A stretch of DNA of 64,000 bases from Alphaproteobacteria bacterium (lineage in GTDB: Bacteria > Pseudomonadota > Alphaproteobacteria > JAJFIK01): assembly GCA_050331455.1 (NCBI GenBank), contig JBHJGV010000029.1, positions 21,596 to 85,595 on the forward strand, in the 5' to 3' direction. Of the stretch, positions 1-25,822 are shown one piece after another. A program made the translations under genes and the position numbers. Within the stretch, counting starts at the first letter, position 1, and each line of letters opens with the position of its first letter. The notes below the pieces were generated by a model. That model was given only the letters and a program-made list of their open reading frames with translations, searched no databases and was not told where the DNA came from.

Positions 1-209
1 TTCTGTACACTGACGAGGAAATGCTCCTCGGTGCCTTCCGGCGGGCCCATGGGTTCGGGCGCAATGACCGGGTCCTGGGCCATGCCGGACTGGCTGCCGC
101 TCGTCGCCACGGTTTGCGTGTCTTTGGACGCACAAGCCGCAGCGGTCAGCGCAAGGGCCAGCACGGCCGCGAGACGAAGGACGATCATGGGGTGCAGTTG
201 GGGAGCCAT
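1..209 (-). CDS. pal: peptidoglycan-associated lipoprotein Pal, N-terminal part only (gene runs off the window start)
   Basis: Reverse-strand translation from the ATG at 209 (alternative ATG at 188) reads MAPQLHPMIVLRLAAVLALALTAAAC ASKDTQ..., a lipoprotein signal with lipobox. It lies directly downstream of tolB, as in tol-pal operons. It is absent from the ORF track because the window edge truncates it. Confidence 0.6.
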   Translation of the reverse strand, partial: MAPQLHPMIVLRLAAVLALALTAAACASKDTQTVATSGSQSGMAQDPVIAPEPMGPPEGTEEHFLVSVQ

Positions 210-465
210 CACTTGATCCACTTCACATGCGATCCGAACGACCGGGCAATCCGAGTAACCGGATGCCACATTGGCATCATGGCGATCCCGACATTCCGAC
301 CCGCACGGACCATTGACATCGGGCCGGCGATTCGGCAGCCGCCATGCGTGACAGTAGTCGGTGCGTTGGTTGCGTTCAAGCCAAGCCCGCCGCGGGCTCC
401 GAGACGCCCAAAAGCGTAAGACTTCACACCGTCATCGCCTGACCACCCGATCGCCGCACTGAGTG

Positions 466-1872
466 TCAAAACCGCGGTTCCGACAGCAGCGGGGACCAGG
501 CGGGATCGGAGGCATCGCCGAACGTTGCGACCGGCCGCTCATTGTATCCCGTCAGATCCACGGACCACAGGCGGACGGAGCCGCCGGAGCCATCCTCGCC
601 AGTGGGCGTCTGACGGAAGAACATCAGGACGCGGCCGTTCGGCGACCAGGTGGGCGCCTCGTCGAGAAAGCTCTCCGTCAAGAGCCGCTCCCCCGACCCG
701 TCCGTGCTCATGACGCCAATATAGAACCGCCCCTTCAAACTCTTGGTGAAGGCGATCAGATCGCCCCGGGGGGACCATACCGGTGTCATATACCGCCCGT
801 CGCCGAAACTGATCCGCTTGGCGTTCAGGCCTTCCGCGCCCATGACATAGATCTGCTGGGCCCCACTCCGGTCGGAGTCGAAGGTGACCCTTGATCCGTC
901 CGGGGAATAGGACGGGGAGACATCAATGCCCGGATGGGAGGTCAGACGGCGGGTCATCCGTGTCTGAAGATCCATGGAGTAGATATCGGTGTTCCCCTAA
1001 AGATAAAAAAACATGATCACTCCGCGCCCGTCCGGAGAAAATCGCGGCGCGAAGGTCATGCCCGGGAAATCGCCCACCACTTCCTGATGGCCGCTTTCGA
1101 TATCCAGCAGATAGACCCGGGGCCGATAGCCCGCAAAGGACATGTAAACGACCTGCTGCTGGGTGGGACTGAACCGCGGTGTCAGCACCAGGGAGCGCCC
1201 GTCGGTCAGGTACATCGGGTTCGCGCCGTCCTGGTCCATGATCGCGAGGCGTTTGCGCCGATCCACCTTCGGCCCGGATTCGGCAATGAAAACGATCCGG
1301 GTGTCGAAATAGCCGGTCTCGCCCGTTAAAGCCTCATATATGTCATCGGAGATCATATGGGCGACCTTACGCCAGCTGTCCGGCGTGATCTTATATTCAA
1401 AGCCGATCACGTCACGCTCCGCGAACACGTCCCACAGCAGGAACTTGACCTTCAGCCGGCCATTCGTCAGGGGCAGGATCTGTCCTGTCACCAGCACCTG
1501 CGCATTGATCAGCCGCCAGTCGCCGAAGCGCGGGCGCCGGTCGAAGGACCGGATGGTCTCGATGAATGCGGCCTCTTCAATGGGGTCGAACAGGCCGGAA
1601 CGCTTCAGATTGCTGCGGATCACGGCGGCGATATCGGCCCCATAGCCACGACCGCTGTCGAGGGTGTCGACGAAGCGGGCAATGGCGACGGGCATGGGCT
1701 CCACCGTCCCGTCGGTGATGGTAATGCGCGGCGGGGTATAATCGTCCTGGGCAAGGGCGGCGCGCGGCGCCATCGGCCCGGCTATCGTCAGCACCAGGAC
1801 GAGAAGTGAGAGCGCCCAGAAGGATCCCGCAGCGACCGTCCATCGGGTAGCGAAAGCGTAAGTCACCGTCAT
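466..1872 (-). pseudogene. tolB: Tol-Pal system beta-propeller protein TolB, interrupted by an in-frame TAG at 997-999 (disrupted gene or sequencing error)
   Basis: ORFs 997..1872 and 466..975 share one frame. The N-terminal part has a signal peptide and TolB N-domain. The C-terminal part reads ...[13 protein letters not shown]... with beta-propeller PD/WSPDG motifs typical of TolB. The expected ~8 residues before GNTDIY are replaced by VIMFFYL* encoded by an AT-rich stretch. Confidence 0.8.
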
Positions 1873-1944
1873 TTCCCTGATCTCCCATCCCCCGTCGGGT
1901 CCGTGCGCATAAGGAAGGACCGCCCCTGCGGCCCTAAGGCCCCG

Positions 1945-3060
1945 TCAATGGCCCAGCAGGAAGCGGGGGTCGAATTCCAGATCAACCCGGCGCCAGCTCT
2001 TGTACCGCTCCACAGGCAGTTGGAAGGGCTGGCACTGGAGAACCGCGCGGACGGCCCGGTCGGTTGCCGCGCGCATGTAGCCGTCCGATTGGGAATGCCA
2101 CGAACTGACCACCCGCGGCACGCCCGCCACGGATCCGTCCGGGTTGAAATTGACCCTGAGGGTCACAATAAGTTCCTGGGCGTTGGGCGCGCCGGTCGGC
2201 GGTGACCAGCACCGCTTCAACTGGGCCTTGATCGCATCGGTCTCATTCACGGTCAGGCCGGTCTGCTGTCCCGCCGCGGCCCGGGACCGGTCCGCCGCTT
2301 CGCCCTCCAGCGAGGGCGCACGCCGGTGGAACACGCGCTCCTTGTCCGCATCGGGATGCTTGTCCAGAAGCGCGGCCGTCTGGGTGAAGAAATCATCCGC
2401 GGGCGCCGGTTCGCGGGGCGGCGTCGCTTGGGTCGGTGCAATGGGACGGGCCAGAGCCTTGGGCGCCTGTCTCGGCGGGCTCGCCGGCGTTTGCGCGTCC
2501 GCTGGCGCAGGGTCCGGCTGGGGTTCGACCACGCGCTTTTCCGGCTCGGGCAGCGGCGCGGGCTCGGGTGCCGGCTCCGGATCCTCAGGCAGCGCCTCAA
2601 TCGGTTTGGGAGCCGGCTCGGGCTCCGGCTGCGAAACAGAGGGAATGGCCGGTTCGGGTGGCGCTTCGGCCACCACCGCGGGGCTCGGTTCAGGGGCGGG
2701 CGCAGGCGGGCTCGGCTCCACGTCGGATGGGGGCTTCGGCTCGGGTGCGGGCTTCGACTCGGCGGATACCGACGGGCGACGGGCCGGTGCCGGCGGCGCC
2801 CGCCGGACTTGGGGCCGAGCCGGGGGCCGGGCGGCGGGACGCGCTGGACCTTGGGGCTTGGGGGCGGCCACCGCCTCGGCCGGATCGGCGGGCTGGCCGA
2901 TCAGCGGCTCGATATTCGTCTCGTCACTGATGGTGACGTAGTCCACATTGAGCACGGGTGGCACGTCCACCGGCGGCGTGTTGCGCAAGGGAAGAGCGAC
3001 CACGCCAAGTGCCAGAACACCCGCATGGAGCAAAGCCGATATGGCAATGGCGGTCCGCAT
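1945..3060 (-). CDS. tolA: Tol-Pal system protein TolA (TonB-family, Pro/Ala/Glu-rich periplasmic linker)
   Basis: Position between tolR and tolB. N-terminal membrane anchor MRTAIAISALLHAGVLALGVVAL, a long Pro/Ala-rich linker, and a TolA/TonB-like C-terminal domain. Start moved to the MRTAIAIS Met (the ORF track begins at 3108). Confidence 0.75.
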   Translation of the reverse strand: MRTAIAISALLHAGVLALGVVALPLRNTPPVDVPPVLNVDYVTISDETNIEPLIGQPADPAEAVAAPKPQGPARPAARPPARPQVRRAPPAPARRPSVSAESKPAPEPKPPSDVEPSPPAPAPEPSPAVVAEAPPEPAIPSVSQPEPEPAPKPIEALPEDPEPAPEPAPLPEPEKRVVEPQPDPAPADAQTPASPPRQAPKALARPIAPTQATPPREPAPADDFFTQTAALLDKHPDADKERVFHRRAPSLEGEAADRSRAAAGQQTGLTVNETDAIKAQLKRCWSPPTGAPNAQELIVTLRVNFNPDGSVAGVPRVVSSWHSQSDGYMRAATDRAVRAVLQCQPFQLPVERYKSWRRVDLEFDPRFLLGH

Positions 3061-3156
3061 GAGCGCCCTACCCCCGCGCCCGCATGACGAACCGGGGGAC
3101 GCGGACACAGTGTCCGTACCCTGACGCTACCGGTCCCGTGATTGCCGAGCGGACGG

Positions 3157-3606
3157 TCATGGCGCCGGCGCCTCCCCGACCAGACCGACCCGGTTGAACC
3201 CGGCCGCGTTGAGCGTCCCGAGGACCGTCATGAACCGCCCGTAATCCACGGTCTCGTCGGCCCGCAGAAAGATCCGCACATCCGGATTGTTGCGGGTGAT
3301 CTGCATGAGTTTCGGGACGAGCGCGTCGATCGGGATTTCCGTATCCTGAACGTAAACGCGGGCATCGGCGGTAATGCTCACCGACAGCGGCTCGTCCGAC
3401 CCCGTCAAGGGTCCGGCCTGCGTTTCCGGCAGATCCACCGGCACACCGACGGTCAGCAGAGGGGCCGTGACCATGAAAATCACCAGGAGCACCATCATGA
3501 CATCAACAAAAGGGGTCACGTTGATCTCGCTCATGGGGCGGAACCGGGGCGCGCGGCGCGGGCGGCCGCGACCGGAGCGGACGGGGCTGTCGGGGGACAT
3601 GGCCAT
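3157..3606 (-). CDS. tolR: biopolymer transport protein TolR (ExbD family)
   Basis: MSEINVTPFVDVMMVLLVIFMVTAPL is the ExbD/TolR signature. Its start overlaps the tolQ stop. Confidence 0.9.
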   Translation of the reverse strand: MAMSPDSPVRSGRGRPRRAPRFRPMSEINVTPFVDVMMVLLVIFMVTAPLLTVGVPVDLPETQAGPLTGSDEPLSVSITADARVYVQDTEIPIDALVPKLMQITRNNPDVRIFLRADETVDYGRFMTVLGTLNAAGFNRVGLVGEAPAP

Positions 3607-4331
3607 TACTGCCCCCGGTCCGCGCCCTCGCCCCGCACTCTCTCGTCGACCTGGCGCGAGAGAATGGCAGCGAATTCGTCCGCAAAGCCTTCGAGGCGGC
3701 CCGCATAGCGTCCCACCTGGCTGGAAAACCGGTTATAGGCGACGACCGCCGGGATCGCCGCGAGCAAACCCAGCGCCGTGGCAAACAGGGCCTCCGCGAT
3801 GCCCGGCGCGACGACGGCAAGGGTGGTGGCCTTGTTCACGCCAATGGCCTGCAGCGTGTTCATGATTCCCCAAACCGTGCCGAACAGGCCGACGAATGGC
3901 GCCGTCGAGCCCACGGTGGCCAGAAAGCCCAACTGACCCTCGACCCGGCCGAGCTCCCGGCTGATGGTGACGGTCATAATGCGGTCGATGCGTTCCTGCA
4001 GGCCGTGGTAGAGCGGCCCCTTTTCCGTGGAGCGCCGCCATTCCCGCATCGCCGCCGCAAAAACGCTTTCCATGGGCGTGGCCGGGCGCCCGCCGATCTG
4101 ATGGACAAGATCCTCGAGCGGCATGCCGGACCAGAACACATCTTCAAACTTGTCCGCCGCCCGTCCGAGCCGGCGCAGCCGCAAAGCCTTGTCCAAAATG
4201 ATGGCCCAACTCCAGATGGACGCCATCATCAGACCGATGATGACCAGCTTGACCACGATGTCGGCTCGCATGAATAGAGCCCAAATGGAAAATTCAGGTC
4301 CCGGCATGGGTGTCCTCTCCGTATCCAACAT
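3606..4331 (-). CDS. tolQ: Tol-Pal system protein TolQ (ExbB/MotA family)
   Basis: SIWALFMRADIVVKLVIIGLMMASIWSWAIIL ... TVGSTAPFVGLFGTVWGIMNTL are TolQ/ExbB motifs. Operon context supports the call. Confidence 0.9.
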   Translation of the reverse strand: MLDTERTPMPGPEFSIWALFMRADIVVKLVIIGLMMASIWSWAIILDKALRLRRLGRAADKFEDVFWSGMPLEDLVHQIGGRPATPMESVFAAAMREWRRSTEKGPLYHGLQERIDRIMTVTISRELGRVEGQLGFLATVGSTAPFVGLFGTVWGIMNTLQAIGVNKATTLAVVAPGIAEALFATALGLLAAIPAVVAYNRFSSQVGRYAGRLEGFADEFAAILSRQVDERVRGEGADRGQ

Positions 4332-4715
4332 CCGTCCTGGGAGCCGCCGGAACAGGGGCCGGCGTCCATGGGACGATCATGGGCTCCGTTCCGCCGCAGG
4401 AGTGCCGGTCCGCTCCGTTGCGGCCGGGGCACATGCATCCCACTCGGACCGACCTTGCGGCTGCATGATCCGCGAAACGATCCGGCATTCAGACCAGCGT
4501 TTTGTGAACCCCAATGGGCAAAGCGATGGCGGAAGAATGAGCTTTCTGCGCCGTCCCCTCCGCCGCAACGTGTCGAGATTTTGGGATCTTTATGACCAAA
4601 CTGCGGCCCTGTCGCCTCCATGGCCCTTACTGCGCAATCTTCAGGTCTTGGCTCCAGATCCGACTTCGGACCCGGAGCGCTGCCCGCAGGTCTTCAGCCT
4701 CACAGGCCCCGCGCG

Positions 4716-5225
4716 TCATCGACCCTCTTCTGGCGGTTCGATCGGGGCCACATAGGGCTCCATCAAGGTGACCACATCGCCGGGCAAACGGCGGGGCCGA
4801 CCTTCGGCATTGATGCAGGCTGCAAACACGTCGGCTGCGAAAATAAGCTCGTCCCCACGCATGATCCACTGACGGGCTTCGATCCGTGCGCCAATCGCCA
4901 TGGTGAATTGGGTGACCACGACAAGAGTGTCGTCGATTCGTGCCGGGCGGTGGAAGGTCATCTCGATCCGGCGGATCGTGAATGCAAGCGGTTCCGCACG
5001 GGCCCACAGCTCGGCATGGTGGACGCCGGCAAGGCGCAGGCAGTCGCTGCGCCCGCGCTCCAGAAAGCGCAGGTAATTTGCATGGTAGACCATACCGGAA
5101 AAGTCCGTGTCCTCATAATAGATGCGGACAGGCAGGAGATGGCGTGCGCCGAAAAAGGCGCCCCCTGGCGGCAGGCCGGCCCAATCGATTCGATCCTTGT
5201 CCGTCATGGGCGCCTCTCCGGTCAT
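4716..5225 (-). CDS. ybgC: acyl-CoA thioesterase YbgC (4HBT hotdog fold), tol-pal associated
   Basis: [31 protein letters not shown] is the YbgC/4HBT signature. The gene sits between ruvB and tolQ and overlaps the ruvB stop by 4 nt. Confidence 0.85.
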
Positions 5226-6301
5226 TCCGATCGATCCGGCGCCGGAGCATCCAGCGCCGTGAACAAATCCATGGGCTCGGGTTCCAGAAGCGGCGGCGTG
5301 AGCCCCAAATGGGTGAAGGCGACCGGCATCAGGACCCGGCCGCGGGGCGTGCGCGTCCCGAAACCCTGGGGGATCAGATTAGGCTCGACGATATCCTCGA
5401 GCGCATCCTTGGGCTCCGACAGGGCGGCGGCCACGGTTTCGATGCCCACCGGACCGCCTTCGAAATGGACCGCGATGGTGCGCAGGTAACGATGATCGAG
5501 ACCGTCGAAACCCCGCTGGTCCACATCAAGCCGCGACAGGGCCTCGTCGGCCCCCCGGGCGGTAATGGCGGCTGCGCCGCTATGGTCTGCAAAATCCCGA
5601 ACCCGGCGCAAAAGGCGGCCCGCGATGCGCGGCGTCCCCCGCGCCCGCCGGGCGATCTCGAGCGCCCCGTCCGCCTCAATGGCCACATCCATCACCCGGG
5701 CTCCACGCTCTACGATCCGGGTCAGGTCCTCCACGGAGTAAAACTCAAGGCGGATCGGAATGCCGAAACGGTCTCGCAAGGGTGTGCTGAGAAGGCCCAT
5801 GCGGGTCGTCGCCGCCACCAGGGTGAAAGGTGCCAGATCGATCTTTACGGAGCGGGCCGCCGGCCCCTCGCCGATAATCAGATCGAGCTGAAAATCCTCC
5901 ATGGCCGGATAGAGAATCTCCTCGACGGCCGGGTTGAGCCGGTGGATCTCGTCGATGAACAGGACATCCCTCGGCTGGAGATTGGTCAGGATGGCCGCGA
6001 GGTCACCCGCCTTCGCGATGACCGGCCCGGAGGTCGCGCGGAAATTGACGCCCAGTTCGCGGGCGACAATCTGGGCCAGGGTCGTCTTGCCGAGGCCCGG
6101 CGGGCCGGACAGGAGCACATGGTCGAGAGCCTCCCCCCGCCCCTTGGCTGCCTCGATGAAAACGGACAGATTTTTGCGCGCCGCGGGCTGGCCGATGAAT
6201 TCGCCCATGGCCAAGGGGCGAAGGCTGGTCTCTCCGGCGTCCTCTTCGAGCGGATCTGCGGTGGTCAGGCGCTGCTCCATCATATCGGGCGCGCTCCCCA
6301 T
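5222..6301 (-). CDS. ruvB: Holliday junction branch migration helicase RuvB
   Basis: Walker [27 protein letters not shown], and the RuvB C-terminal winged helix. N-terminal boundary uncertain; a later Met (MMEQRL) is possible. Confidence 0.9.
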
Positions 6302-6427
6302 ACTGTGTGCTTTCTGCCGTGTGCATTGCGTGAACGCGGTCCGGTGCGGGCGGATCGCCCGTTTTTTCGCGTTCGCGGTCTGTTCGTCAGACTATCCAGG
6401 TGTTCGTTCGCTTTCCAGCACCAATGA

Positions 6428-6784
6428 CAACCGCCGGGTAAAGCGGCATTTCGCCCGATGACGTCCTTCGCCTTCCTTCTCGGCATGATCCCGTTGGTCA
6501 TCGCGACGGGGGCCGGGGCCGAAATGCGCCAGGCCTTGGGCACGGCGGTCTTTTTCGGCATGATCGGCGTGACCGTGTTCGGCCTCATCTTCACGCCCAT
6601 CTGCTATGTCCTGATCCAAGGGCTGTGCTGCCATCCGCTGGACCGCCGCTTCGCCTTTTCCTGGACCGTCCGGGGCGGGCGAAACGGCAACGGACCGTCC
6701 GGCGATGGGCCATCCGGGGGCATGGAGTCCGGGGACAAGGAGTCTGGGGACAGGGGGGGGGCGCGGACGCCGGCCACCGGCTGA
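6428..6784 (+). pseudogene. C-terminal remnant of an RND (AcrB/HAE1-type) efflux transporter
   Basis: AAFRPMTSFAFLLGMIPLVIATGAGAEMRQALGTAVFFGMIGVTVFGLIFTPICYVLI matches the last two TM helices of AcrB-like pumps (...[27 protein letters not shown]...). The frame opens just after a TGA at 6425, so about 1000 aa of N-terminal sequence is absent. Confidence 0.7.
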
Positions 6785-6812
6785 TATCAGCCGCAAAAAG
6801 GGACGCACGCAC

Positions 6813-7832
6813 ATGATCCGATCAACGCTCGACACGCGGTTCCTGGTCATCGCGTGTGCTTTCGCCCTCACCATTGTCGGCGGGGCCCCGGCACGGGCGC
6901 AGCCGCCGACCCTGATCTTTCCCGTGACCTGCACCTATGGGCAGGACTGCATCATCCAGAACTATGTGGCCTGGGGCGGCGAGACCCCCCGGGACTATCG
7001 CTGCGGGTCCCTCACCTACCCGACCCACAAGGGCACCGACATTCGGGTTCTGGACCTGGAAACCATGGAACGCGGCGTCACAGTGATGGCCGCGGCGGGC
7101 GGCACGGTTCGCGGGATCCGGGACGGCATGGCCGACCGATCCGTCAAGACGATCGACAAGGCGGGCCTCAAGGGCCGCGAATGCGGCAATGGCGTGCTTG
7201 TTTCCCATGCGGACGGTTGGTCCACCCAGTATTGTCACATGAAGCGGGGCAGCATCGCGGTCCGCAGCGGAGACGCCGTGCGGGCGGGCACGCCCCTCGG
7301 CCAGGTTGGCCTGTCCGGCAACACGGTGTTTCCCCATCTCCATTTCGTGGTCCGCCAGGGGGACCGGGTCGTCGATCCATTCACAGGACCGGACGGCCGC
7401 CCGGCCTGCGAGGGCGGCGGCGGCACGGTCCTGTGGGATCGCGAGCAGGCGTCTGCGCTGACTTACGAACCGATCCGCATTTTCGGAGCCGGCTTTTCGG
7501 GCACCCCGGTGTCCCAGGACAGCGTCAATGCCGATACCACCTCGCCGGCCACCATCTCGGCCCGCAGCCCGGTCTTTCTGTTCTGGACCCGGCTGATCGG
7601 CCTGTCGCCGCGTTACCGGGTCAAACTCTCGGTCACGGACCCGCGGGGCACGACCATCGTGGACACCTGGCTCGATCCGGTTGACCGCCACAAGGCCGAA
7701 TGGGTTTCCTGGACCGGCCGCCGCGGCCCCCTGAATGCCTGGCTCCGCGGCACCTATCGTGGCGCTGTGACGGTCTTCGAAGGCAACCGGACCGTCGTGA
7801 CCCGCACCCAGCAGGTGCGCATCGGGGAGTGA
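6813..7832 (+). CDS. M23 family metallopeptidase (LytM-like), secreted
   Basis: Signal peptide MIRSTLDTRFLVIACAFALTIVGGAPARAQ. HKGTDI (HxxxD) and HLHFVV (HxH) zinc-ligand motifs of the M23 family. Start moved to the ATG at 6813 downstream of the ORF-track start. Confidence 0.8.
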   Translation: MIRSTLDTRFLVIACAFALTIVGGAPARAQPPTLIFPVTCTYGQDCIIQNYVAWGGETPRDYRCGSLTYPTHKGTDIRVLDLETMERGVTVMAAAGGTVRGIRDGMADRSVKTIDKAGLKGRECGNGVLVSHADGWSTQYCHMKRGSIAVRSGDAVRAGTPLGQVGLSGNTVFPHLHFVVRQGDRVVDPFTGPDGRPACEGGGGTVLWDREQASALTYEPIRIFGAGFSGTPVSQDSVNADTTSPATISARSPVFLFWTRLIGLSPRYRVKLSVTDPRGTTIVDTWLDPVDRHKAEWVSWTGRRGPLNAWLRGTYRGAVTVFEGNRTVVTRTQQVRIGE

Positions 7833-7880
7833 TCGAGCCGGCCGTTGCGAGATGGTCGGAGGCGGGCGCAGGGGCCATAA

Positions 7881-9122
7881 GTGGGGCACACGATGGGCAC
7901 ACAGACCGGCCATGATCCGTGGCCCGACGTTCTGGGGTGGATCGCACAGCGTGATCTTTCAGGGTCCGTCCTGTCGTCCGAGGCCATGCCTCTCCTGGTG
8001 GTCATCGCGGCAGCCCTCGCCATTCTCGTCATCGCCCGCCGCGCCTGGGAGGCGGGACGCGGGAGAAACGCCCTCCGCTATGCCCGGTCCTTGAGTCCCG
8101 TCGAGACCCGCTTCGTGGACGACAGCCTCGCAGACTTGATGGCCCATCTGGAGCGCGTGGGCCTGTCCGTGTTCGGGCGCGCCCTGCTCTATGCCGGGGG
8201 CTTTATCGCCTTTTTCGCGCTCTGGTTCGGAAGCTGGGCGCTGATCCTTCTCCTCACGGAGCGGTTGCGGCGCATGCTGGCCTTTGATGCGGCCAAAGGC
8301 CTGGAGCGCTTCGTCTGGGGGGCCCAGAGCCTCGATCCTGGTCTTTTGTTCATCAGCCTGTTCGCGAGCTGGGCCTTTGCGCTCGCAACGGTCCAAAATG
8401 TGGACCGGTTCTCGCCGCGCCTTGCAGCGTGGATCTATCTCTATCTCAACTGGAACCGGGTCAGCGATGCGGCACCGACCCAAGAGGATTTCGCCGGCGA
8501 CATCGTCCATTTCGTCCGACAGGGTACGATCCGGCCGGAAACGGGCTTTGAGCCGGGACCATTCCTGCGCCTCGCCTTTCGCCGCAATGCCCATCTGATC
8601 CAGGCCGGCGCGATTATCATGGCAACCCTGACCGGCGTGTCTTTGCTGTTCGCGGTGCACCACTTTCACGTGATCTCGCCGACCGCGATCCGGTATTCTC
8701 CCTATTCATCCTTCGCTGTGAAGACGGCCTCGCTTTCGGATATCGTCCGGGTGCGGCGGGCCTGCCATCTCTCGCCCAGTCGCGGGGGCGAGCGGTTGAC
8801 CGCCCGTTACGACCTTGTGATGCCGGACGGCGAGCGCCTTGCCGTGTGGACCGAAGGCACCGTCACCCCGACGACCCTCCCCATTCTGGAAGCCATCCAT
8901 GGGGCCATCGCGCAGACGGACACCCCGTTCGTTCAGGGCTGGCCGGGGGGCGCCCTGCCGCGCAGACCGGCCTATGCCTTCTCCCCCCGATGCCGCAGCC
9001 TGCTGCGCGACAGGCTCGGCCCGGGTGTAGCCGCCTCGGCCTTCCGCATGCTGACCACACCGCCGGGTGAGGCCCAACAGGGCAAGCCCCGACGCGGCAC
9101 GGCTCAGCCGGGCAGTTCGTAA
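7881..9122 (+). CDS. hypothetical membrane protein (about 4 predicted TM helices), no recognised family
   Basis: Long ORF with several hydrophobic helices (LLVVIAAALAILVIA, FIAFFALWFGSWALILLL, LLFISLFASWAFALA, IIMATLTGVSLLFAV). Follows the M23 peptidase on the same strand. The true start may be a later Met near 7986. Its 3' end overlaps the abgT end by 19 nt. Confidence 0.5.
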   Translation: MGHTMGTQTGHDPWPDVLGWIAQRDLSGSVLSSEAMPLLVVIAAALAILVIARRAWEAGRGRNALRYARSLSPVETRFVDDSLADLMAHLERVGLSVFGRALLYAGGFIAFFALWFGSWALILLLTERLRRMLAFDAAKGLERFVWGAQSLDPGLLFISLFASWAFALATVQNVDRFSPRLAAWIYLYLNWNRVSDAAPTQEDFAGDIVHFVRQGTIRPETGFEPGPFLRLAFRRNAHLIQAGAIIMATLTGVSLLFAVHHFHVISPTAIRYSPYSSFAVKTASLSDIVRVRRACHLSPSRGGERLTARYDLVMPDGERLAVWTEGTVTPTTLPILEAIHGAIAQTDTPFVQGWPGGALPRRPAYAFSPRCRSLLRDRLGPGVAASAFRMLTTPPGEAQQGKPRRGTAQPGSS

Positions 9123-10699
9123 CCGATCCCCGCGCCCGGACCGAGCGGCAGGTTGAGCAGGGCCCAGACGAGGGTCATGACCGAGCCGGCCGCCAGGAAC
9201 CACAGGCCATAGGGGATCATCACCGCCATCAGTGAGCCCAGGCCGAAATCGGCGCGCCAGCGTTGGCAGAAGGTGAGCACAAGCGGGAAATAGACCATCA
9301 GCGGCGTGACAATATTGGTCGCGCTGTCCCCGACCCGGTAGGCGGCCGTCGTCATTTCCGGGCTGATATTCAACAACATCAGCATGGGCACCAGGATGGG
9401 GGCGAGAAAAGCCCATTTGGCGCTGGCTGAGCCCACGAAGATGTTCACGCCCGAAGCCAGGAAAATCACCATGACAAGCAAGAGCGGAGCCGGCAGCCCA
9501 CTGGCACGCAACAGATCCGCCCCGGTCACCGCCATGATGATGCCGAGTTTGGACAGTGCGAAAAACTCGACAAAATGGGCGGCCACGAAGGCGAGCACGA
9601 TATAATAGCTCATGGAGGACATGGAGGCGGTCATCATGTCCACCACGTCCCGGTGGCTGCGGATCGTCCGTGCACTGGCCCCATAGGCGATCGATGCGCC
9701 GAGAAACACGATGAAGAAATAGGCCACCAGAGAGGTATAAAAGGGGCGGAGCTGATAGGCGGGATCGACACTCAAATCCCGCAAGGGCGCGCCGGGACCG
9801 AAACCCAGATAGGCCCACAGGGCCGTCACGCCAAGCACGACGAGACCGGCCAGACGCAGGCCCCTGGATTCGCCTTGCGAGAGGTCGCCGTCCCGGGCGC
9901 CCCCTTCGTCCGCTCCCGGCAGCGCTGTCCAGGGGCCGAGGCGCGGCTCGATCAGGCGGTCGGTGACGTACCAGATGACGGGCATGTAAGCGAACAGCAT
10001 GATCGCCATGAAGAACCAGTTGCCCGCGATCGTGGCGGTCCAGTCCGAGACCAGGATCTGGGCGCCCTCTTCGGTGATGCCGAACAGCAGCGCATCAAGC
10101 TGTCCGGGGAGCAGATTGGCTGAAAAGCCCCCCGAGACGCCCGCAAAGGCGGCCGCGATCCCGGCAATGGGATGTCGTCCGGCACCGGCATAAATGACCC
10201 CTGCGAGGGGGATCAACACCACATAGGCCGCATCGACCGCCAGATTGCTCATCATGGCGAGGAAAGCCACGGCCGGTGTCAGCAGGGCGGTCGGAGCCCG
10301 CCGCATGCCGGCCCGCATGGCCGCCCCGAACAGGCCGACCCGCTCCGCGACCCCTGCCCCCAGCATGACCACGAGCACAAGGCCCAGGGGACGAAAGCCC
10401 ATGAGCGTTTCCGGCATCTGGGTGAGAAAATGGCGCAGTTGCTCGCCGCTGAGCAGGCTCTGAGCCTCGATCACCTCTTTCGTGACCGGGTTGACCGCAC
10501 TCAGCCCGGTTGCCGCCGCGTTGGCACTGACCAGGACGACCGCGACCATGAGCCAGACAAAGATGAGCACCGGGTCCGGCAGGCCGTTTCCGGTCCGCTC
10601 GATCCAGCCCAGAACGCCCTTCAACTCCGACGGCGGCGCACCCGCCGTCCCCGCGCCCTGCCCTGTGCTCTCGCCCCCACCCTGGTTTTGCTCACTCAT
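9104..10699 (-). CDS. abgT: AbgT family transporter (p-aminobenzoyl-glutamate / MtrF-type)
   Basis: N-terminus LGWIERTGNGLPDPVLIFVWLMVAVVLVS and a multi-helix body typical of the AbgT family. Start set at the MSEQNQGG Met (the ORF track begins at 10777). Confidence 0.8.
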   Translation of the reverse strand: MSEQNQGGGESTGQGAGTAGAPPSELKGVLGWIERTGNGLPDPVLIFVWLMVAVVLVSANAAATGLSAVNPVTKEVIEAQSLLSGEQLRHFLTQMPETLMGFRPLGLVLVVMLGAGVAERVGLFGAAMRAGMRRAPTALLTPAVAFLAMMSNLAVDAAYVVLIPLAGVIYAGAGRHPIAGIAAAFAGVSGGFSANLLPGQLDALLFGITEEGAQILVSDWTATIAGNWFFMAIMLFAYMPVIWYVTDRLIEPRLGPWTALPGADEGGARDGDLSQGESRGLRLAGLVVLGVTALWAYLGFGPGAPLRDLSVDPAYQLRPFYTSLVAYFFIVFLGASIAYGASARTIRSHRDVVDMMTASMSSMSYYIVLAFVAAHFVEFFALSKLGIIMAVTGADLLRASGLPAPLLLVMVIFLASGVNIFVGSASAKWAFLAPILVPMLMLLNISPEMTTAAYRVGDSATNIVTPLMVYFPLVLTFCQRWRADFGLGSLMAVMIPYGLWFLAAGSVMTLVWALLNLPLGPGAGIGYELPG

Positions 10700-10814
10700 C
10701 CCGGAACCCTCCTCACCGGGCCGCCACATTCCATGTGTTGCGCACCCGCTGCCCAAAATCACTGCTCCAGCACCCATTCCAGGCCCCAGACATCTTTCAC
10801 AAGCCTAACGGAGA

Positions 10815-11661
10815 TTGCAGGGACTGCACTCTGGATTTTTTTGGGGATGGGCGGTCGCGGCGCTCGCCTGTCGTGCCGGACAGAAGATCGACGCGGACGC
10901 CTTCGACTATGTCTGCAAGCTCGACCTCGATCTGCGCCTGCCGCCGCGCTATTTCGAAATGTTGATGGACCGCATGGAGGCCAATCCCACCATCGCGACC
11001 TGCAGCGGCAAGGCCTATATCGAGGAGAACGGCGCGTTTCGGCCCGAGCGCCACGGCGACGACACCTCCCTCGGCATGACCAAATTTTACCGGACCGACC
11101 GGCTCAAGGCGATCGGCGGCTTCGTGCGCGACATGAATTGGGACGGCATCGATTGCCACCAGTGCCGGATGCAGGGCGGACTGGCCTGCAGTTGGGACGA
11201 TCCGGAACTGCGCGTTGTCCATCTGCGGCCCATGGGATCGAGCCAGAAGGGCATCATCACCGGCAAGATCCGCTACGGCTACGCCCTATTATATGGGCAC
11301 GGGCCTCCTTTACCTGACCGCCAGCGCCCTGACCCGGGTCAATCAACGGCCCTATCTGCTAGGCAGCACCGCGGTCCTGTGGGGCTGGATCGAGGCCAAA
11401 CTCAAGGGCAAGCCCCGGTTCGAGCGCCCGAAAAGCGGTTTCGTGCTGCCCTATGACCGCTGGATGCGCAGCACCTTGGGCAAGCAGATCGACCGTACAT
11501 TGACGGACTCGGATCTCGTGCGCATGGCCGGCCTCGACCCCCAGGCCGTGGCCACCTATTGGCGCAGCTATCGCAAAGGCGCCAAGGGCCAATACTGGAC
11601 CTGCGTCTGGGCCCTTTACGTGCTCACCCAGTGGTGCAGCCGGCATGGGGTTGGGATATAA
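10815..11661 (+). pseudogene. glycosyltransferase-like gene remnant (N-terminally truncated, frameshift near 11280)
   Basis: Two overlapping ORFs in different frames (10815..11456 and 11215..11661) read as one protein: ...TKFYRTDRLKAIGGFVRDMNWDGIDCH...GKIRYGYA / YYMGTGLLYLTASALTRVNQRPYLLGSTAVLWGWIE... A GT2-like C-terminal half with a membrane segment is present, but no N-terminal DXD catalytic region. Confidence 0.5.
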
Positions 11662-11779
11662 GGGCGCGACACCCCCCCTCCCTTTCGCAGAAGAAATCGC
11701 CCGTCAAAGACGCTTTGGACCAATGGGGGGCTGGCACCGTGTGATGCATTCGTACACAGATTGATGAGGAGATTGCCCC

Positions 11780-12580
11780 ATGGCAAAAGCACTGGACTTG
11801 TTCAAGCTGGACGGCAAGGTCGCTGTCGTGACCGGGGGCGCCAAGGGTCTTGGTTATTTCATGGCCGAGGGGCTCGCCGAGGCGGGCGCCGATGTGGTGA
11901 TCTGTGGACGGGGCAAAAGTGGCGGGCTGGAGGATGCACGCGAGCGCATCGAACGCAGCGGGCGTCAATGCCTCGCAATCGAATGCGATGTCAGCAATGA
12001 AAATGCCGTGGTTGCGATGGCCGCGCGGGTCAAGGAGCACTTCGGGCGATGCGATATCCTCATTAACAATGCCGGCCTCGGCGGCGTCACGCCTTCGGTC
12101 AATCTCAGTGCCGATGATTTTGCGCGGATGATGGACGTCAACCTGACAGGCATGTTTCTGTGCGCTCGTGAGATCGGTAAGCTGATGATCGCGCAGGGCG
12201 GAGGATGCATCATCAACCTGTCGAGCGAGAACGGCCAAGTCGGCTTCTCGGCCGGTATGACCCATTACGCCACGAGCAAGAGCGGCGCGATCGGCATGAC
12301 ACGCTCGCTGGCGGTCGAATGGGGAAAGCACGGCATTCGGGTCAACGCGATTCTCCCCGGTAATATGGAGGAGGGTATGATGGAGTTCCTGCAGGACAAG
12401 GAGGGCCCGCTCCATCAGGCATTGGCGCCGCCCTTGCTGGGTCTGACGCCCCTGGGCTCATTCGGCACCGGCGATGATATGAAGGGGGCGGCGGTTTTTC
12501 TCGCCTCTGAAGCCGGGCGTTATGTCACCGGAGCCATGCTCGTCGTGGACGGAGGTTTCACGATCAACAGTGGCCTTTGA
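11780..12580 (+). CDS. SDR family NAD(P)-dependent oxidoreductase
   Basis: GKVAVVTGGAKGLGYFMA (TGxxxGxG), NNAG, and the YATSK catalytic YxxxK motif. RBS GAGGAG upstream. Confidence 0.9.
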   Translation: MAKALDLFKLDGKVAVVTGGAKGLGYFMAEGLAEAGADVVICGRGKSGGLEDARERIERSGRQCLAIECDVSNENAVVAMAARVKEHFGRCDILINNAGLGGVTPSVNLSADDFARMMDVNLTGMFLCAREIGKLMIAQGGGCIINLSSENGQVGFSAGMTHYATSKSGAIGMTRSLAVEWGKHGIRVNAILPGNMEEGMMEFLQDKEGPLHQALAPPLLGLTPLGSFGTGDDMKGAAVFLASEAGRYVTGAMLVVDGGFTINSGL

Positions 12581-12911
12581 GCCGCGCCATGTCTTACCGA
12601 CGCATGGGAATGCTCTTTGTCGGCACACAGACAGGCACCAGGCATTGCCCAGGCAATCGTCATCTCGCACGGGCCTGTAAAAACAGTCGGGGAGCGGACC
12701 ACAGGCCGGTCCTCCCCTCGCCCACATCTGCGAAAATTTGAACGGACTCGTTTTGGCCGCCGGCATATTCGTGCCTGAATGCGGAGCTTTAGAGGACGGA
12801 CATCCCACATTCGGCGAGGTTGGAAACGGCAAAAAACAACGCTCATGCGCGGCGGTGAGACGCCGTTTCCATAGTGGATGTCATGATTGAAAGTGATGTC
12901 ATGATTGACAT

Positions 12912-12998
12912 TGGTGCGGCCGAGAAGACTCGAACTTCCACCCGTGTTACCGGACAGCGACCTCAACGCTGCGCGTCTACCAATTCCGCCACGGCCGC
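12912..12998 (-). tRNA. tRNA-Leu (anticodon GAG), 87 nt with long variable arm and encoded CCA
   Basis: Reverse complement reads GCGGCCGTGGCGGAATTGGTAGACGCGCAGCGTTGAGGTCGCTGTCCGGTAACACGGGTGGAAGTTCGAGTCTTCTCGGCCGCACCA. It has the class II cloverleaf. The anticodon loop TTGAGGT gives anticodon GAG. Confidence 0.85.
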
Positions 12999-13101
12999 GA
13001 AGGAAAGGTTCTTCAAGTAGACCCGGGACGTAGCAAATCGGATCCGCCTTGTGAAGGGCCTTGAGGCGAAAATCGCCCCGAGGCCCGGCCCCGGCGCGCG
13101 C

Positions 13102-13938
13102 TCAAATGCCGTCGCCGTCGGTGAGGGCCGGCTGATGGATGCCGCACTCGTCCTTGTCGAGGCCGGACCAGCGGCCCGAGCGGTAATCCTCGCCCTCCTT
13201 CACCCGATCCGTGCAGGGCATGCAGCCGATGGAGAGATAGCCGTCCTTGACCAGGGGGTGCCGGGGCAGGTTGTGGGTTGCCATGTAATCGTTGAGGTGC
13301 TCCAGGGTCCAACTGGCCAGGGGATTGATCTTGAAGCGCCCTTCGGACACCTCGATGGCCTCCATCCGGGCCCGCGCGCCGGTCTGGAAGCGCTTGCGGC
13401 CCGTGATCTGCGCTTCAAAGCCCGCCAACCCCCGCTCCAACGGCAAGACTTTGCGGAAATGACAGCAGGCATCCGGCTCCTGGGACCACAGCATGCCATT
13501 GGGGTCGAGCCGGGCCGTGTCCTTCGGGTGCGGGTGCAGCACCCGCAGATCGGTCAGGCCCAGCACCTCCTGGAGCCGGTCCCGGTAGCGCAGGGTCTCC
13601 CCGAACAGCTTGCCCGTATTCAGAAACAGCACCGGCACCATGGGGTCCACCCGGGACACCATATGCAGCAGCACGGCGGACTCCGCCCCAAAGGATGACA
13701 CGGCCGCAATGGTGCCGGGAAAATCCTCCTCGATCAGGGGGCGGAGCAGCTCCACCCCACCGAGGTCGCCATGGCGAGCCCACAGATCGGCCAACCGGTC
13801 GGCCAGGGCCGCGTCCTCGGGCGCCGCGCCGTCGCCGCCATCCATGGGCCGGGGGCGCGGCTTGGGCTGGCCCGGCGGCGTCACGCCGTCCACACGGCCG
13901 TTCGTGAGGGGAATGGTGGTGACGCTCATGGCAGCCAT
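13102..13938 (-). CDS. cysH: phosphoadenylyl-sulfate / adenylyl-sulfate reductase (thioredoxin-dependent), CysH family
   Basis: SSFGAESAVLLHMVSRVDP (PP-loop-like), the DACCHFRKVLPL motif, and C-terminal ECGIH. The cysteine pairs suggest the Fe-S-containing APS-reductase type. Start moved inward to avoid a large overlap with the upstream gene. Confidence 0.85.
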   Translation of the reverse strand: MAAMSVTTIPLTNGRVDGVTPPGQPKPRPRPMDGGDGAAPEDAALADRLADLWARHGDLGGVELLRPLIEEDFPGTIAAVSSFGAESAVLLHMVSRVDPMVPVLFLNTGKLFGETLRYRDRLQEVLGLTDLRVLHPHPKDTARLDPNGMLWSQEPDACCHFRKVLPLERGLAGFEAQITGRKRFQTGARARMEAIEVSEGRFKINPLASWTLEHLNDYMATHNLPRHPLVKDGYLSIGCMPCTDRVKEGEDYRSGRWSGLDKDECGIHQPALTDGDGI

Positions 13939-15001: not shown

Positions 15002-15697
15002 ATGACGGAGCTGTCGGCCCTCAAGCGGGAGGCGCCCGTCGACTGGCTGATTTCGCCGGGCCTTGTCGATTATGCCACGGCGGAACGTGCCATGGCGGAC
15101 CGGGTGGCCGCGATCCTTGAGGGCACGGCGCCTGAGGCGATCTGGCTGCTGGAGCACCCGCCCCTTTACACGGCGGGCACCAGTGCGAAGCCTACGGACC
15201 TTCTGACCCCGGACCGTTTCCCCGTGCATCAGACCGGGCGTGGCGGGCAATACACCTATCACGGGCCGGGCCAGCGGGTGGCCTATGTCATGCTGGATCT
15301 CAAAGCCCGGGGGCAGGATGTGCGCGCATTCGTGACGGGGCTGGAGACCTGGATTATCGAAACACTCGCCGCCTTCAATGTGCGGGGCGAGCGGCGGGGC
15401 GAACGGGTCGGTGTCTGGGTCGCCCGGGGGGGCGGCCGGGAGGACAAGATCGCCGCCATCGGCATCCGGGTGCGCCGCTGGGTCAGCTTCCACGGGATCG
15501 CCATCAATGTGGAGCCGGATCTGGAGCATTTCGCCGGCATCGTGCCGTGCGGCATCAGCCAGCACGGCATCACCAGCCTTGTCGATCTCGGGCTGCCCAT
15601 CACCATGGCCGACCTGGACATCGCCCTGAAAGCCGCCTTCGAGCCCGTGTTCGGTCCGGCCCGCCAGGCCGCCCCGACCATGGCCCCGACGCTTTAG
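15002..15697 (+). CDS. lipB: lipoyl(octanoyl) transferase LipB
   Basis: [21 protein letters not shown]...[25 protein letters not shown]...[22 protein letters not shown] are LipB signatures. RBS AAGGAGAG upstream of the ATG at 15002. Confidence 0.9.
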
Positions 15698-15768
15698 CCG
15701 GGGCAGACCACAAAATGGCGGTTCAGGCTGGGGCGGTTCAGGCTGGCCGGGAGAGCGGCGCCCGCCCC

Positions 15769-16617
15769 TTAGAAATTGGCCTGCAGACCGAAGCCCCAGC
15801 GCAGAGATCCCCGGCGCCCCAGGCCCGGCTCGCCATCCATCAGAAAGTGGTCCCGACTGGCCCGGTCCCACTGCAATCCGGCGGTTAAATCCACCTGATC
15901 GGACAGACCCGTGACGATATTTGCTCCCAGGCCCGCATAACGATAGCCGGGAGCCGTGCCGCTGACCACCTTGCCGACGGCGGCATGGGCCGCAACGTCC
16001 AGGCGGGGCAGGACAGTAAAGGCCTTCTCGACGGCGGCCTCCAGGCTCGCGGTGTTGCTCAAGGCATCGTGGCACAGGCTCAAGGCCGGTTGCCCCGGGG
16101 CATCCATCAGGAGACGGATGACCGGTTCCACAGCGAGGCGGTCCTCATTGGCGATTGCCACCCGGGACCCCGCCCCGTTCGCCACGGCATCGGGGGTCAG
16201 CACGGGCAGGGTCAGAGCCTGAAGCCCCAAATCGAGCGTGAGGCCCGCCATGAGGGACTGTTTGACGCCGCCGAAAACATGGTAGCGCGCCTGGGCCGGC
16301 GCATTTTCCTCTTCAAAGGGGCGCACACCGCGATAGCCCCCGTAAAAGGGTCCATAGTCCACGCGTACCGTGCGGTGCAGCCCGGTCTCGGCGGTCTGGA
16401 TACCGCGGAACACATGCTCACTGTCGAAGTTAACCTCGTGGAAAACGGAAAAACGATATCCCTCGTCTTCGACAAGGTGAACGGGTTGCGGCCCGCGCTC
16501 GACGCTCACGGCTCGGGCCGGCTGGGGCTGAAGCAACAGCCCCAGGGCAACTCCGACGGCCGCACCGGGCAAAGCCGCCGTGCCGCGGGCGCCCGTGCGC
16601 CGGCACGCGGCGCCCAT
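15769..16617 (-). CDS. hypothetical outer-membrane beta-barrel-like protein
   Basis: Signal-like N-terminus (AALPGAAVGVALGLLLQPQPARA), alternating amphipathic strands, and a C-terminal aromatic residue (...GFGLQANF). Start position uncertain; the ORF track begins at 16686. Confidence 0.5.
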   Translation of the reverse strand: MGAACRRTGARGTAALPGAAVGVALGLLLQPQPARAVSVERGPQPVHLVEDEGYRFSVFHEVNFDSEHVFRGIQTAETGLHRTVRVDYGPFYGGYRGVRPFEEENAPAQARYHVFGGVKQSLMAGLTLDLGLQALTLPVLTPDAVANGAGSRVAIANEDRLAVEPVIRLLMDAPGQPALSLCHDALSNTASLEAAVEKAFTVLPRLDVAAHAAVGKVVSGTAPGYRYAGLGANIVTGLSDQVDLTAGLQWDRASRDHFLMDGEPGLGRRGSLRWGFGLQANF

Positions 16618-16849
16618 GCCGCGCCCACCGCGGAAGGCCGCGGCGGGCGCGCTTATTGTGTCGGTCCCCACGAAAAAAGCCCCCAATGCTTCGGGTCGGT
16701 TCCACGCAGCCCCTGAACGACCTTCAAAAGCCGCCCCTCGTCCCGGATCGCAGCCTGTGACACCACCGCATCAATTGCGGGGTTGCAGCCACGCCGCAGA
16801 TCAGGATCTGCGCACGGGCCTTAAAGTCCGGCTAAAATCAGCTTACAAA

Positions 16850-18835
16850 ATGGGATCGGGTGAATGGGATGTCGGGATTGGCGGCGTCGCCCGCTGCGGA
16901 TCGGCGCAGCGGATGCGAGCCGCGAGCGTGGAGACGAGAATGATCAGGGTCGCTATCCGCAGAACCGGGCGCCGCAGTCACCCTGGCGTGCCGGCCACGC
17001 TGAGCCGTTGCAGGGGCGCGGGGTCCCCTGCCGGCCTCCCCCTACAGCATTTCATAATCGGCCTTCTGGTCCTGGTCTTTGCGACCGGCGTGATGCCGGC
17101 CCAGCCATGGGCCAGAGACGTGGATCGCATCCTGCCGCCGCGAACCGTCGAGGCCACGCCGTCGGGCGCTCCGGCGACCATCGCGCCCTGGGTCTGGACC
17201 GTGACGCCGCGCCTGGAGACCCGGGCGGTGCAGGTCTTCGCCACCGTGACGACGCCGGAAGGCCGCGTCTACCCGGCGCTGCGGGCCGTGCCCGGCGTGG
17301 GAGAGTCCAGTTTCGATCCCGGCGGGCCGGTGCGAATCGCGATCCGGGACGCGGCGGGACGGACGGTTGTCGATGTGCCCTTTCCCGGCTCCGAGCAACG
17401 GGTGGGCGCCGGCGAGATTTCCGGAGCCGGTGTGACCCGGATCGCCGTGGAGCTGCGGATGTTCGGCGAGGTGCGCCAGCTCACCTGGACCGTCGAGACG
17501 CCGGTGGAGAGCGGCGCCGAAGCCGAAAAGGTGGCCGCCGCGCCTGAGGCCGTTAAACCGCGCTCCGTGGAGCCCCAAACGGCGCAGACCGGCCGCACGC
17601 CCCCGTCATCCGGTGCGCCCCGCTCTATCCAGCCAGAGCCCGAGGCCTTCCGGCCAGAGCCAATGACGCCCACTGAGGATTTGGCCCGCCAGGCTGCACC
17701 CGCCGAAACACCGCCGCGCCGGGCCCTCGGCGCCACCGGCGACGTGCCCCAACTGGCCGGCGGGGACAATACGGTCAGTCAACGGACCGGCACACCATCG
17801 GGAACCCGGGGCACCGAAGCAACGGGCCCCTTCATTCCGGATGTGGCGCCGGCGCCCCGGCCTCGCCCCACCGCGCCCGAACCGCGCGAGGGACCGCGTA
17901 TTGCCATGGAGATCGCACCGCGGACCGGCTTGGCAAGCGGCCGGCGCACCATGTCCGTGGAGCCGGCGCCGACACCGCCCAGCCAGCCGGCGCAGCCTCG
18001 GGCGTCCTCCATCGCGCCGGCCCCGCCGCCCCCTCCGAGCCGAGCCGCCAGCCCGCCAAGCGCCGGTGTCGGGCGGACCGACGGGCGCTGGTCCAGCTGG
18101 ACTCCGGGCGCGCCTCAGACCGATCGTGAGACCGGTGGACCGGTTTCCCTGGCCCCGGGCAGTGACCGCAGCGCCGCCACGGATCCGTTCCGACCCGACA
18201 GGACCGAACCGACGCAGCGACCATCGCAGGTCAGAACCGCTGCCCTGCCCCCGGCCCAATCCTCGCCATCCCGTCCAAGCGCCGCCGCAGACCGCCCCGC
18301 CGGTTATGACTCCGGCACCGGGGTCCGGGATCCGGCAACGGCCTCCCGGTCGCCGGTCGGCTCTGGCGCCGATATACCGCGTCCGCTGCCCGCGCCCTGG
18401 ACCGTGCGGCGGCCGTCCACGGCCGCGGCCCGCTCGGTCGCCGCGAGAGAAGGCCAGGCGGCCTGGGAACCAAGACGCCCCATGACCCCGGAAGAGACCT
18501 CCCGAACCATCGAACAACTCCTGTCCGGGGCCAGCGGTTCGCCCGTGCAGGTGCCGCCACGCCGCACCGAAGATCCTGGCACGGCACCGGCGGCGGCGCG
18601 CCTGAGCGGACCCGTCGATACCGGTGTGCGCCGTTCCGAACGCGAGCGCAATTGTTCACGCGTCGTCTATACCTATGCCTGTACCGGCCGCCCCGCCTTC
18701 GGCGAGGAAGCCGACAGCATCACCTTTTCCTGCGACCGGGACATGGAAGACTGTTGCGACGCGCGCAAATCCCGCGTCGCGCGCCTGTGCGGCGACCGCA
18801 ATTCAGTCAAGACATTCGACTGCGGCTGTTCTTGA
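16850..18835 (+). CDS. hypothetical membrane-anchored proline-rich protein with cysteine-rich C-terminal domain
   Basis: Open frame of about 660 codons after the MGSGEW Met. Includes a TM/signal-anchor (FIIGLLVLVFATGVM), a ~150-aa region that looks folded, a ~400-aa Pro/Ala/Ser/Arg-rich low-complexity stretch, and a C-terminal ~60 aa with 8 Cys (CSRVVYTYACTGRP...FSCDRDMEDCCDARKSRVARLCGD...FDCGCS). A terminator hairpin follows. High-GC DNA allows long spurious frames, hence moderate confidence. Confidence 0.55.
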   Translation: MGSGEWDVGIGGVARCGSAQRMRAASVETRMIRVAIRRTGRRSHPGVPATLSRCRGAGSPAGLPLQHFIIGLLVLVFATGVMPAQPWARDVDRILPPRTVEATPSGAPATIAPWVWTVTPRLETRAVQVFATVTTPEGRVYPALRAVPGVGESSFDPGGPVRIAIRDAAGRTVVDVPFPGSEQRVGAGEISGAGVTRIAVELRMFGEVRQLTWTVETPVESGAEAEKVAAAPEAVKPRSVEPQTAQTGRTPPSSGAPRSIQPEPEAFRPEPMTPTEDLARQAAPAETPPRRALGATGDVPQLAGGDNTVSQRTGTPSGTRGTEATGPFIPDVAPAPRPRPTAPEPREGPRIAMEIAPRTGLASGRRTMSVEPAPTPPSQPAQPRASSIAPAPPPPPSRAASPPSAGVGRTDGRWSSWTPGAPQTDRETGGPVSLAPGSDRSAATDPFRPDRTEPTQRPSQVRTAALPPAQSSPSRPSAAADRPAGYDSGTGVRDPATASRSPVGSGADIPRPLPAPWTVRRPSTAAARSVAAREGQAAWEPRRPMTPEETSRTIEQLLSGASGSPVQVPPRRTEDPGTAPAAARLSGPVDTGVRRSERERNCSRVVYTYACTGRPAFGEEADSITFSCDRDMEDCCDARKSRVARLCGDRNSVKTFDCGCS

Positions 18836-18840
18836 ATGTT

Positions 18841-18885
18841 AAAATATAAAAGGCAGCGGTGCTTCCACGCCGCTGCCCTCTGTTT
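18841..18885. terminator. rho-independent terminator hairpin between convergent genes (mainly serves the minus-strand exoF-like gene)
   Basis: GGCAGCGG (18852-18859) pairs with CCGCTGCC (18870-18877). On the minus strand the hairpin is followed by TTTTATATTTT (18841-18851); on the plus strand by CTCTGTTT. Confidence 0.65.
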
Positions 18886-18912
18886 AGCTCAACGGGTCGA
18901 TACACCGGCTGA

Positions 18913-19512
18913 TTAAAACCGCCGTTCACCCACGCGGACAATATCGCCCGGCTGAATTTTGGTTTGGGAGGTGGCCGGAACGGCGATTTCCGCCTGACTT
19001 CCGGCACGGGTCAGAAAGATGGTCCGGTTATTGGCCCGCGGCGTGAACCCGCCCGCCATGCTGATCGCATTCAGCACATGCATATTGGCCACGTAGGGGA
19101 ACTCTCCGCCCCGCTGGACTTCGCCGAAAATGTAGAAAGGCCTGTTCTCCTCGACCTCGATGCTGACCCGGGGCTCGACGAGATATTGGGCGAAGGCTTC
19201 CGTCAGGCGCTCTTCCGCCTCGCGCAGCGTGAGTTGATTGACATCGACCACGCCGACCAAGGGCAAGGCGATGCCACCGGTGGCATCCACCTCGAAAGAT
19301 CCCGACAGATTGGTTTCATTGAAAACGATGACCCGCAGTTGATCCCGAGGTCCCAGGCGGTAGGCCTGCTGGTTCACGGCGGATACGGGCATGACATTGG
19401 CCGAAGCCGAGGTCATGGGCTCCGGTTGCATGGCACAGCCGGCCATGAGCACGCAGGCAATCACCGGCCCGAAGACCCTGGACGGCATTTTGGCAACAAA
19501 CGACATGATCAT
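18913..19512 (-). CDS. polysaccharide export protein (Poly_export/OPX family, ExoF/Wza/GumB-like), short 199-aa form, lipoprotein
   Basis: Lipoprotein signal VIACVLMAGCAMQ. YRLGPRDQLRVIVFNETNLSGSFEVDATGGIALPLVG is the Poly_export (PF02563-type) motif. A SLBB-like segment and C-terminal QPGDIVRV follow. Confidence 0.8.
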   Translation of the reverse strand: MIMSFVAKMPSRVFGPVIACVLMAGCAMQPEPMTSASANVMPVSAVNQQAYRLGPRDQLRVIVFNETNLSGSFEVDATGGIALPLVGVVDVNQLTLREAEERLTEAFAQYLVEPRVSIEVEENRPFYIFGEVQRGGEFPYVANMHVLNAISMAGGFTPRANNRTIFLTRAGSQAEIAVPATSQTKIQPGDIVRVGERRF

Positions 19513-25774: not shown

Positions 25775-25822
25775 GAAAGCCCGCCTCGAACGCCGGCCCT
25801 TCGATCACTGTCAAAACACCCC

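Follow-up and report, generated by a model that had tools for sequence, protein, structure and literature searches.

A local error of consensus or assembly as the most likely source of an in-frame TAG in tolB of an alphaproteobacterial genome assembly

Introduction

In a 64,000-nucleotide stretch of alphaproteobacterial DNA taken from a metagenome-assembled genome (MAG), and called the window hereafter, tolB is interrupted by a TAG in its own reading frame. Has the organism lost TolB, does it decode the stop, or did the stop arise during assembly? A first-pass annotation of the same DNA had listed a pseudogene, a sequencing or assembly artefact at a homopolymer and translational read-through as candidate causes. 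Here we compare the window with a near-identical MAG, with run-level contigs and with TolB homologues. We propose that the organism itself most likely lacks the TAG patch, which would have entered the source MAG through a local error of consensus or assembly.

Results

The interrupted gene is tolB, as first annotated. Both halves match TIGR02800, the NCBIfam TolB equivalog (Tol-Pal beta-propeller protein), the 5′ part over profile positions 5–251 (247 bits) and the 3′ part over positions 264–418 (172 bits), and neither reaches the curated cut-off of 343 bits singly. Translation of 466–1872 confirmed that the two halves share a frame and are split only by the TAG (Table 1). The locus is tolB, yet as written it encodes no TolB. 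Gene calls and Pfam matches on the near-identical contig L086, with coordinates mapped to the window as 13002 − x, gave the order 4HBT (ybgC), MotA_ExbB, ExbD, UCP034077 (tolA position), TolB and OmpA (pal), placing the gene inside a tolQ-tolR-tolA-tolB-pal cluster. L086 is identical to window 1–12908 except for two clusters of substitutions and one single-nucleotide polymorphism (SNP).

Table 1. Coordinates of the interrupted gene, its neighbours and the positions at which the window differs from the near-identical MAG.
Feature	Position	Strand	Description
pal (start)	1–209		OmpA Pfam match on near-identical contig L086
tolB	466–1872	minus	1,407 nt, both halves in one frame
tolB, 3′ part	466–996	minus	frame shared with 5′ part
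tolB substitution cluster	978–1021		14 changes in 44 nt, no indel; gapless alignment to near-identical MAG
In-frame TAG (cta on plus strand)	997–999	minus	GAC (Asp) in near-identical MAG
tolB, 5′ part	997–1872	minus	291 codons, then in-frame TAG
Gene in tolA position	1945–3060	minus	call and UCP034077 Pfam match on near-identical contig L086
tolR	3157–3606	minus	call and ExbD Pfam match on near-identical contig L086
tolQ	3606–4307	minus	call and MotA_ExbB Pfam match on near-identical contig L086
ruvB	5222–6283	minus	carries second substitution cluster
ruvB substitution cluster	5355–5380		5 substitutions in 26 nt versus GCA_964406365.1
Isolated SNP	10521		I/N, predicted membrane stretch of AbgT-family transporter; versus GCA_964406365.1
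Isolated SNP	13411		synonymous; versus GCA_964406365.1
Tandem array, 13-nt unit GCTCCCGTCCGGG	41349–41400		4 copies in window versus 5 in GCA_964406365.1
Isolated SNP	43217		G/R, N-terminal part of YceG-family protein; versus GCA_964406365.1

Comparison with a near-identical genome

Two contigs of the MAG GCA_964406365.1 allowed 63,730 bases of the window to be compared. Contig CAYORL010000066.1 aligned to window 1–12908 with 0 gaps and 20 mismatches, distributed as 14 at 978–1021, 5 at 5355–5380 and 1 at 10521, and contig CAYORL010000019.1 aligned to window 13179–64000 with two SNPs and one 13-nt repeat unit as the only differences. This amounts to 22 substitutions (14 in 44 nt, 5 in 26 nt and 3 isolated SNPs) and one change in repeat copy number. 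So few differences over 63.7 kb identify the window and GCA_964406365.1 as one population, within which the two clusters are extreme outliers. The differences lie mostly in short dense patches, the pattern of assembly error.

The 13-nt array sits between guanylate kinase and YicC-like genes, and its difference in length stems from natural variation in copy number or from collapse of the repeat during assembly. Both contigs of GCA_964406365.1 stop beside a tRNA-Leu gene with anticodon GAG (12912–12998, minus strand), and the window bridges them across 12873–13179. The first 92 nt of contig CAYORL010000066.1 are an inverted copy of window 12873–12965, a typical contig-end artefact of that other assembly. 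Elsewhere, a single 4,166-aa open reading frame (ORF; 28039–40539, plus strand) with HemolysinCabind, Cadherin_4/5 and Big_9 repeats has an identical product in the other MAG and is a giant RTX- or adhesin-like protein by its predicted domains. Between this gene and an exopolysaccharide cluster (Wzz, Wzy_C, Poly_export and glycosyltransferase) lies the gene for a 547-aa protein (25823–27466, minus strand) that combines a TIR_2 domain with Sel1 repeats.

The substitution patch in tolB

All 14 of the 1,407 tolB positions that differ from the near-identical MAG lie inside 978–1021, where the plus strand changes from CCCGCTCCAGGCT in that MAG to AAAGATAAAAAAA in the window; the canonical sequence at the site is AGCCTGGAGCGGGAC. 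Two of the 14 substitutions, at 997 and 999, fall in the TAG codon. Outside the patch, the 5′ part is identical to P0001/L081, and the 3′ part equals L081 apart from positions 978 and 994. P0001 is the intact 468-aa TolB of GCA_964406365.1 (contig CAYORL010000066.1), which a protein search recovered at 99% identity to the window TolB; it scores 459 bits against TIGR02800 and reads GRGVIMSLERDGNTDIYAMDLQ across the site (VIM-SLERD-GNTDIYA). In the protein, the cluster turns SLERD into FFYL-stop and changes one A to S, and does nothing else. The VIM codons are native, so that of the segment VIMFFYL-stop first thought to have been replaced, FFYL-stop stands (for SLERD) and VIM drops out. With 1,407 nt on both sides and a gapless alignment, the patch is a cluster of substitutions rather than an insertion or one nonsense change; the initial view of a short replacement instead of a point nonsense mutation therefore holds, and that of an insertion scar does not.

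On the sense strand, the changes comprise eight G to T, two C to T, one A to T, two C to G and one C to A, so 11 of 14 are to T, and 10 of 13 consecutive bases were turned into one base. The AT-rich 24-nt patch described at first pass was borne out: positions 998–1021 hold 5 G+C in 24 bases, the second lowest count among the 63,977 24-mers of the window (64.6% G+C). Inside it lies the sole A7 run of the window (1005–1011; T7 on the tolB sense strand), which is a by-product of the substitutions and not their cause. An artefact is favoured, as one of the first suggestions had it, but not a homopolymer-length error, since the A7 was itself made by substitutions. Under a uniform model corrected for all positions compared, the chance of at least 14 substitutions in some 44-nt stretch is ~2.5e-32. 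A GGC motif at the start of the cluster was set aside as evidence, because at 65% G+C such a triplet is too frequent to be informative.

Alignment to orthologues, a check proposed with the first annotation, delimited the replaced segment (SLERD). It is exactly five residues long in 79 of 79 homologues gathered by motif search, with S as the first residue in 74 and T in 5, and none of the 79 has a stop there. SLERD is also present in P0002, an 84%-identical relative. Together, these patterns mark the tolB of the window as the derived, deviant version.

A second cluster in ruvB

The second cluster alters conserved RuvB residues. The near-identical MAG encodes EPYLIQQGFVKRTPRG (its EPYLIQQGFVK portion) where the window differs, and solved RuvB structures have EPYLIQQG, as in that MAG and not as in the window; this agreement identifies the window as deviant here too, at conserved residues. 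The corrected probability of the cluster is ~3e-8 (uniform model). On the plus strand, each of the five wrong bases is the same as one of the two reference bases just before it, which has a chance of 0.42 per base and 0.013 for all five. This preceding-base signature is absent from the tolB cluster (5 of 14 positions only).

Run-level sequence bears directly on the ruvB cluster. The Logan contig L091, an assembly of the single run SRR6462993, covers window 4241–5375, so that its end falls within the cluster. Over 4241–5354 it does not differ from the window, and it carries the bases of the MAG at all four cluster positions that it covers (5355, 5358, 5369 and 5370). An independent run-level contig thus contradicts the ruvB cluster of the window. 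Other Logan contigs, from SRR6462991–SRR6462993, are 100% identical to window 2355–4269, 15515–31084 and 46006–47684, and from this identity the three runs contain the same population as the window.

For the tolB patch, no run-level contig was found over 978–1021, and GCA_964406365.1 is the sole independent sequence. In a gene collection that includes Logan assemblies of three runs containing the organism, the products specific to the window that were looked up (TolB of 291 aa and 169 aa, RuvB of 353 and 359 aa, and YceG of 335 aa) had no exact record. Protein searches with segments of 116 aa and 250 aa around the patch returned only matches of 48–73% identity and limited length, none from the species, and a scan of a genome collection with TolB gave 60% identity at best among the matches listed, with no close relatives among them. 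The flanking 41-mer had no match, and the patch 24-mer no exact match, in the metagenome contig collection. Literature searches with the run and assembly accessions found nothing.

Elsewhere in the window, a 108-aa ORF (6458–6784, plus strand) matches the RND transporter family ACR_tran and looks like a gene remnant, because ACR_tran proteins are normally ~1,000 aa long. The longest G run of the window, a G9 at 6753–6761, lies near the 3′ end of this ORF.

Origin of the patch

The explanation that we prefer is an error of consensus or assembly. The assembler would have been without clean read support at the site, and a run of miscalled bases, such as a low-quality short-read tail, would have entered the contig and overwritten 14 of 44 bases in a tolB that was intact elsewhere, leaving its length unchanged. 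The change from SLERD to FFYL-stop and the A7 run would both be by-products of the miscalled stretch. The same event would have occurred in ruvB, 4.4 kb away, and the organism itself would carry a normal full-length TolB, like the near-identical MAG.

Chen, Anantharaman, Shaiber, Eren and Banfield (2020) described a class of local assembly errors in MAGs that damage protein-coding genes and are present in public databases; short consensus stretches without perfect support from any read are their defining test, and wrong repeat numbers are another common error (PMC7111523). As in that class, a short wrong consensus in an otherwise correct contig would corrupt a gene at more than one site per genome, and the repeat-copy difference at 41349–41400 is of an error type named there. 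The errors of that study were defined by read support, whereas ours is defined by comparison of assemblies only, from which we infer that the patch has no read support.

Both clusters consist of substitutions only and are directionally biased, which resembles two error modes of Illumina sequencing. Nakamura et al. (2011) described runs of consecutive miscalls, ~40 bases long, that copy the preceding base and hinder de novo assembly (PMC3141275), and Kircher et al. (2009) described late-cycle miscalls of G, then of A and C, as T in old chemistry (PMC2745764). Like those errors, the clusters are indel-free runs of substitutions on a scale of ~40 bases; every wrong ruvB base repeats one of the two bases before it (PMC3141275), and the tolB cluster changes G, C and A to T on one strand (PMC2745764). 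Unlike them, the clusters stand in a finished consensus and not in single reads, and the tolB cluster lacks the preceding-base signature of PMC3141275. The likeness is an analogy, and any particular platform or assembler step behind the window would be conjectural.

Alternative explanations

A real and very recent inactivation of tolB is unlikely but is the best-surviving alternative. Here, many clustered bases would have mutated together in the sequenced cells, as in an error-prone repair patch; if so, what would remain, with the same low likelihood, is a fresh pseudogene with a 291-aa N-terminal piece and a C-terminal piece that is untranslated or translated separately. The TAG is, after all, present in the sequence as assembled. 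Moreover, the window is not a mere copy of the other MAG: with three isolated SNPs and a repeat-copy difference, it may represent a slightly different strain or sample, or a distinct clone, in which a real mutation is conceivable. Any real event would have to be extremely recent, because the remaining 1,363 nt of tolB show no difference and hence no further decay. It would also need two dense clusters at conserved housekeeping residues against a background of three SNPs in 63.7 kb. The second of these is the ruvB cluster that the run-level contig contradicts, and the only other sequence of the lineage has an intact tolB. On these two grounds the pseudogene first considered is improbable.

The nature of the change argues in the same direction. 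The split resembles that of a nonsense pseudogene of an envelope gene, in that an in-frame stop leaves a conserved gene in two non-functional pieces, and neither passes the TolB profile by itself. The usual cause of such a pseudogene, however, is a single base change or indel followed by decay, and not 14 clustered changes with an intact copy in a near-identical genome. Mutagenesis by repair patches is, to our knowledge, far less dense than 10 of 13 consecutive bases turned into one base. Tol-Pal is essential or important for envelope integrity in alphaproteobacteria such as Caulobacter, which weighs further against real loss of TolB. More broadly, that the patch is real and that a natural clone carries dense, strand-biased, length-preserving hypermutation tracts (14 in 44 nt in tolB and 5 in 26 nt in ruvB) while living with a split tolB is a reading to which we give low credence.

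Templated replacement and recoding of the stop jointly retain only a sliver of probability. In the former, which we consider very improbable, the patch would have been copied in by short gene conversion, by a template switch at a quasi-palindrome or as the footprint of a mobile element. Both a template switch and a short conversion can replace a short tract at unchanged length, as is seen here. Neither process has a candidate source in the window: no second copy of the patch was found on either strand of the 64 kb at up to three mismatches, and no direct or inverted repeat partner overlapping 996–1013 was found within 700–1300. Nor, as noted, does the patch 24-mer have an exact match in the metagenome contig collection. 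The unchanged length and lack of a target-site duplication led us to reject an insertion or mobile-element scar, and a divergent tolB allele was rejected as donor because a tolB homologue would not encode FFYL-stop.

Programmed decoding is the least probable of all, and we regard it as scarcely credible. It would have the TAG read through (by an amber suppressor tRNA, as pyrrolysine or as a reassigned codon) or bypassed (by hopping, or by frameshifting on the T7), so that full-length TolB is made. The continuing frame, and seven T before the stop on the sense strand, would suit such a mechanism, and the in-frame TAG with a continuing frame recalls amber suppression, pyrrolysine and the hopping of phage T4 gene 60. 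Yet TAG is a normal terminator that ends 4 of the 51 genes called on the near-identical contigs, 0 of these 51 has an internal stop, in-frame TAG or other, and the only tRNA gene in the window is Leu-GAG; on these grounds, the read-through raised at first pass finds no footing. A codon-position G+C scan for other genes running through stops gave a noisy signal in this genome. Frameshifting on the T7 was rejected, because both halves are in frame 0 and a slip would lose the C-terminal half instead of restoring it. In contrast to T4 gene 60, the TAG does not adjoin the only possible GGA take-off codon, which lies 8 codons before it. Read-through would still yield FFYLx where an S/T-L/M-x-x-x segment is conserved. 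Finally, a programmed signal would be conserved, whereas this one is absent from the closest relative, a genome that over 63.7 kb departs from the window only in the two clusters, one repeat unit and three isolated SNPs.

Discussion

A consensus or assembly error remains the reading that we favour, and the TAG in tolB is most likely not a biological feature of this organism, as judged from the sequences compared. Split tolB calls may be common in public metagenome assemblies, since many TolB fragments of 80–200 aa in a public protein collection come from very long contigs, of up to 1.8 Mb.

The case serves mainly as a warning that, when a MAG shows an essential envelope gene as broken, the break could pass for a pseudogene, a gene loss or a recoding event. 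Several signs of such an error can be read in the absence of the reads themselves, namely bursts of substitutions that preserve length, their absence from a near-identical assembly, their recurrence in housekeeping genes nearby and a directional base bias. Were the patch real, it would be a striking case of natural clustered hypermutation, which no finding here favours, and would suggest either that the loss of TolB is tolerated or that a local mutagenic process not described before is at work.
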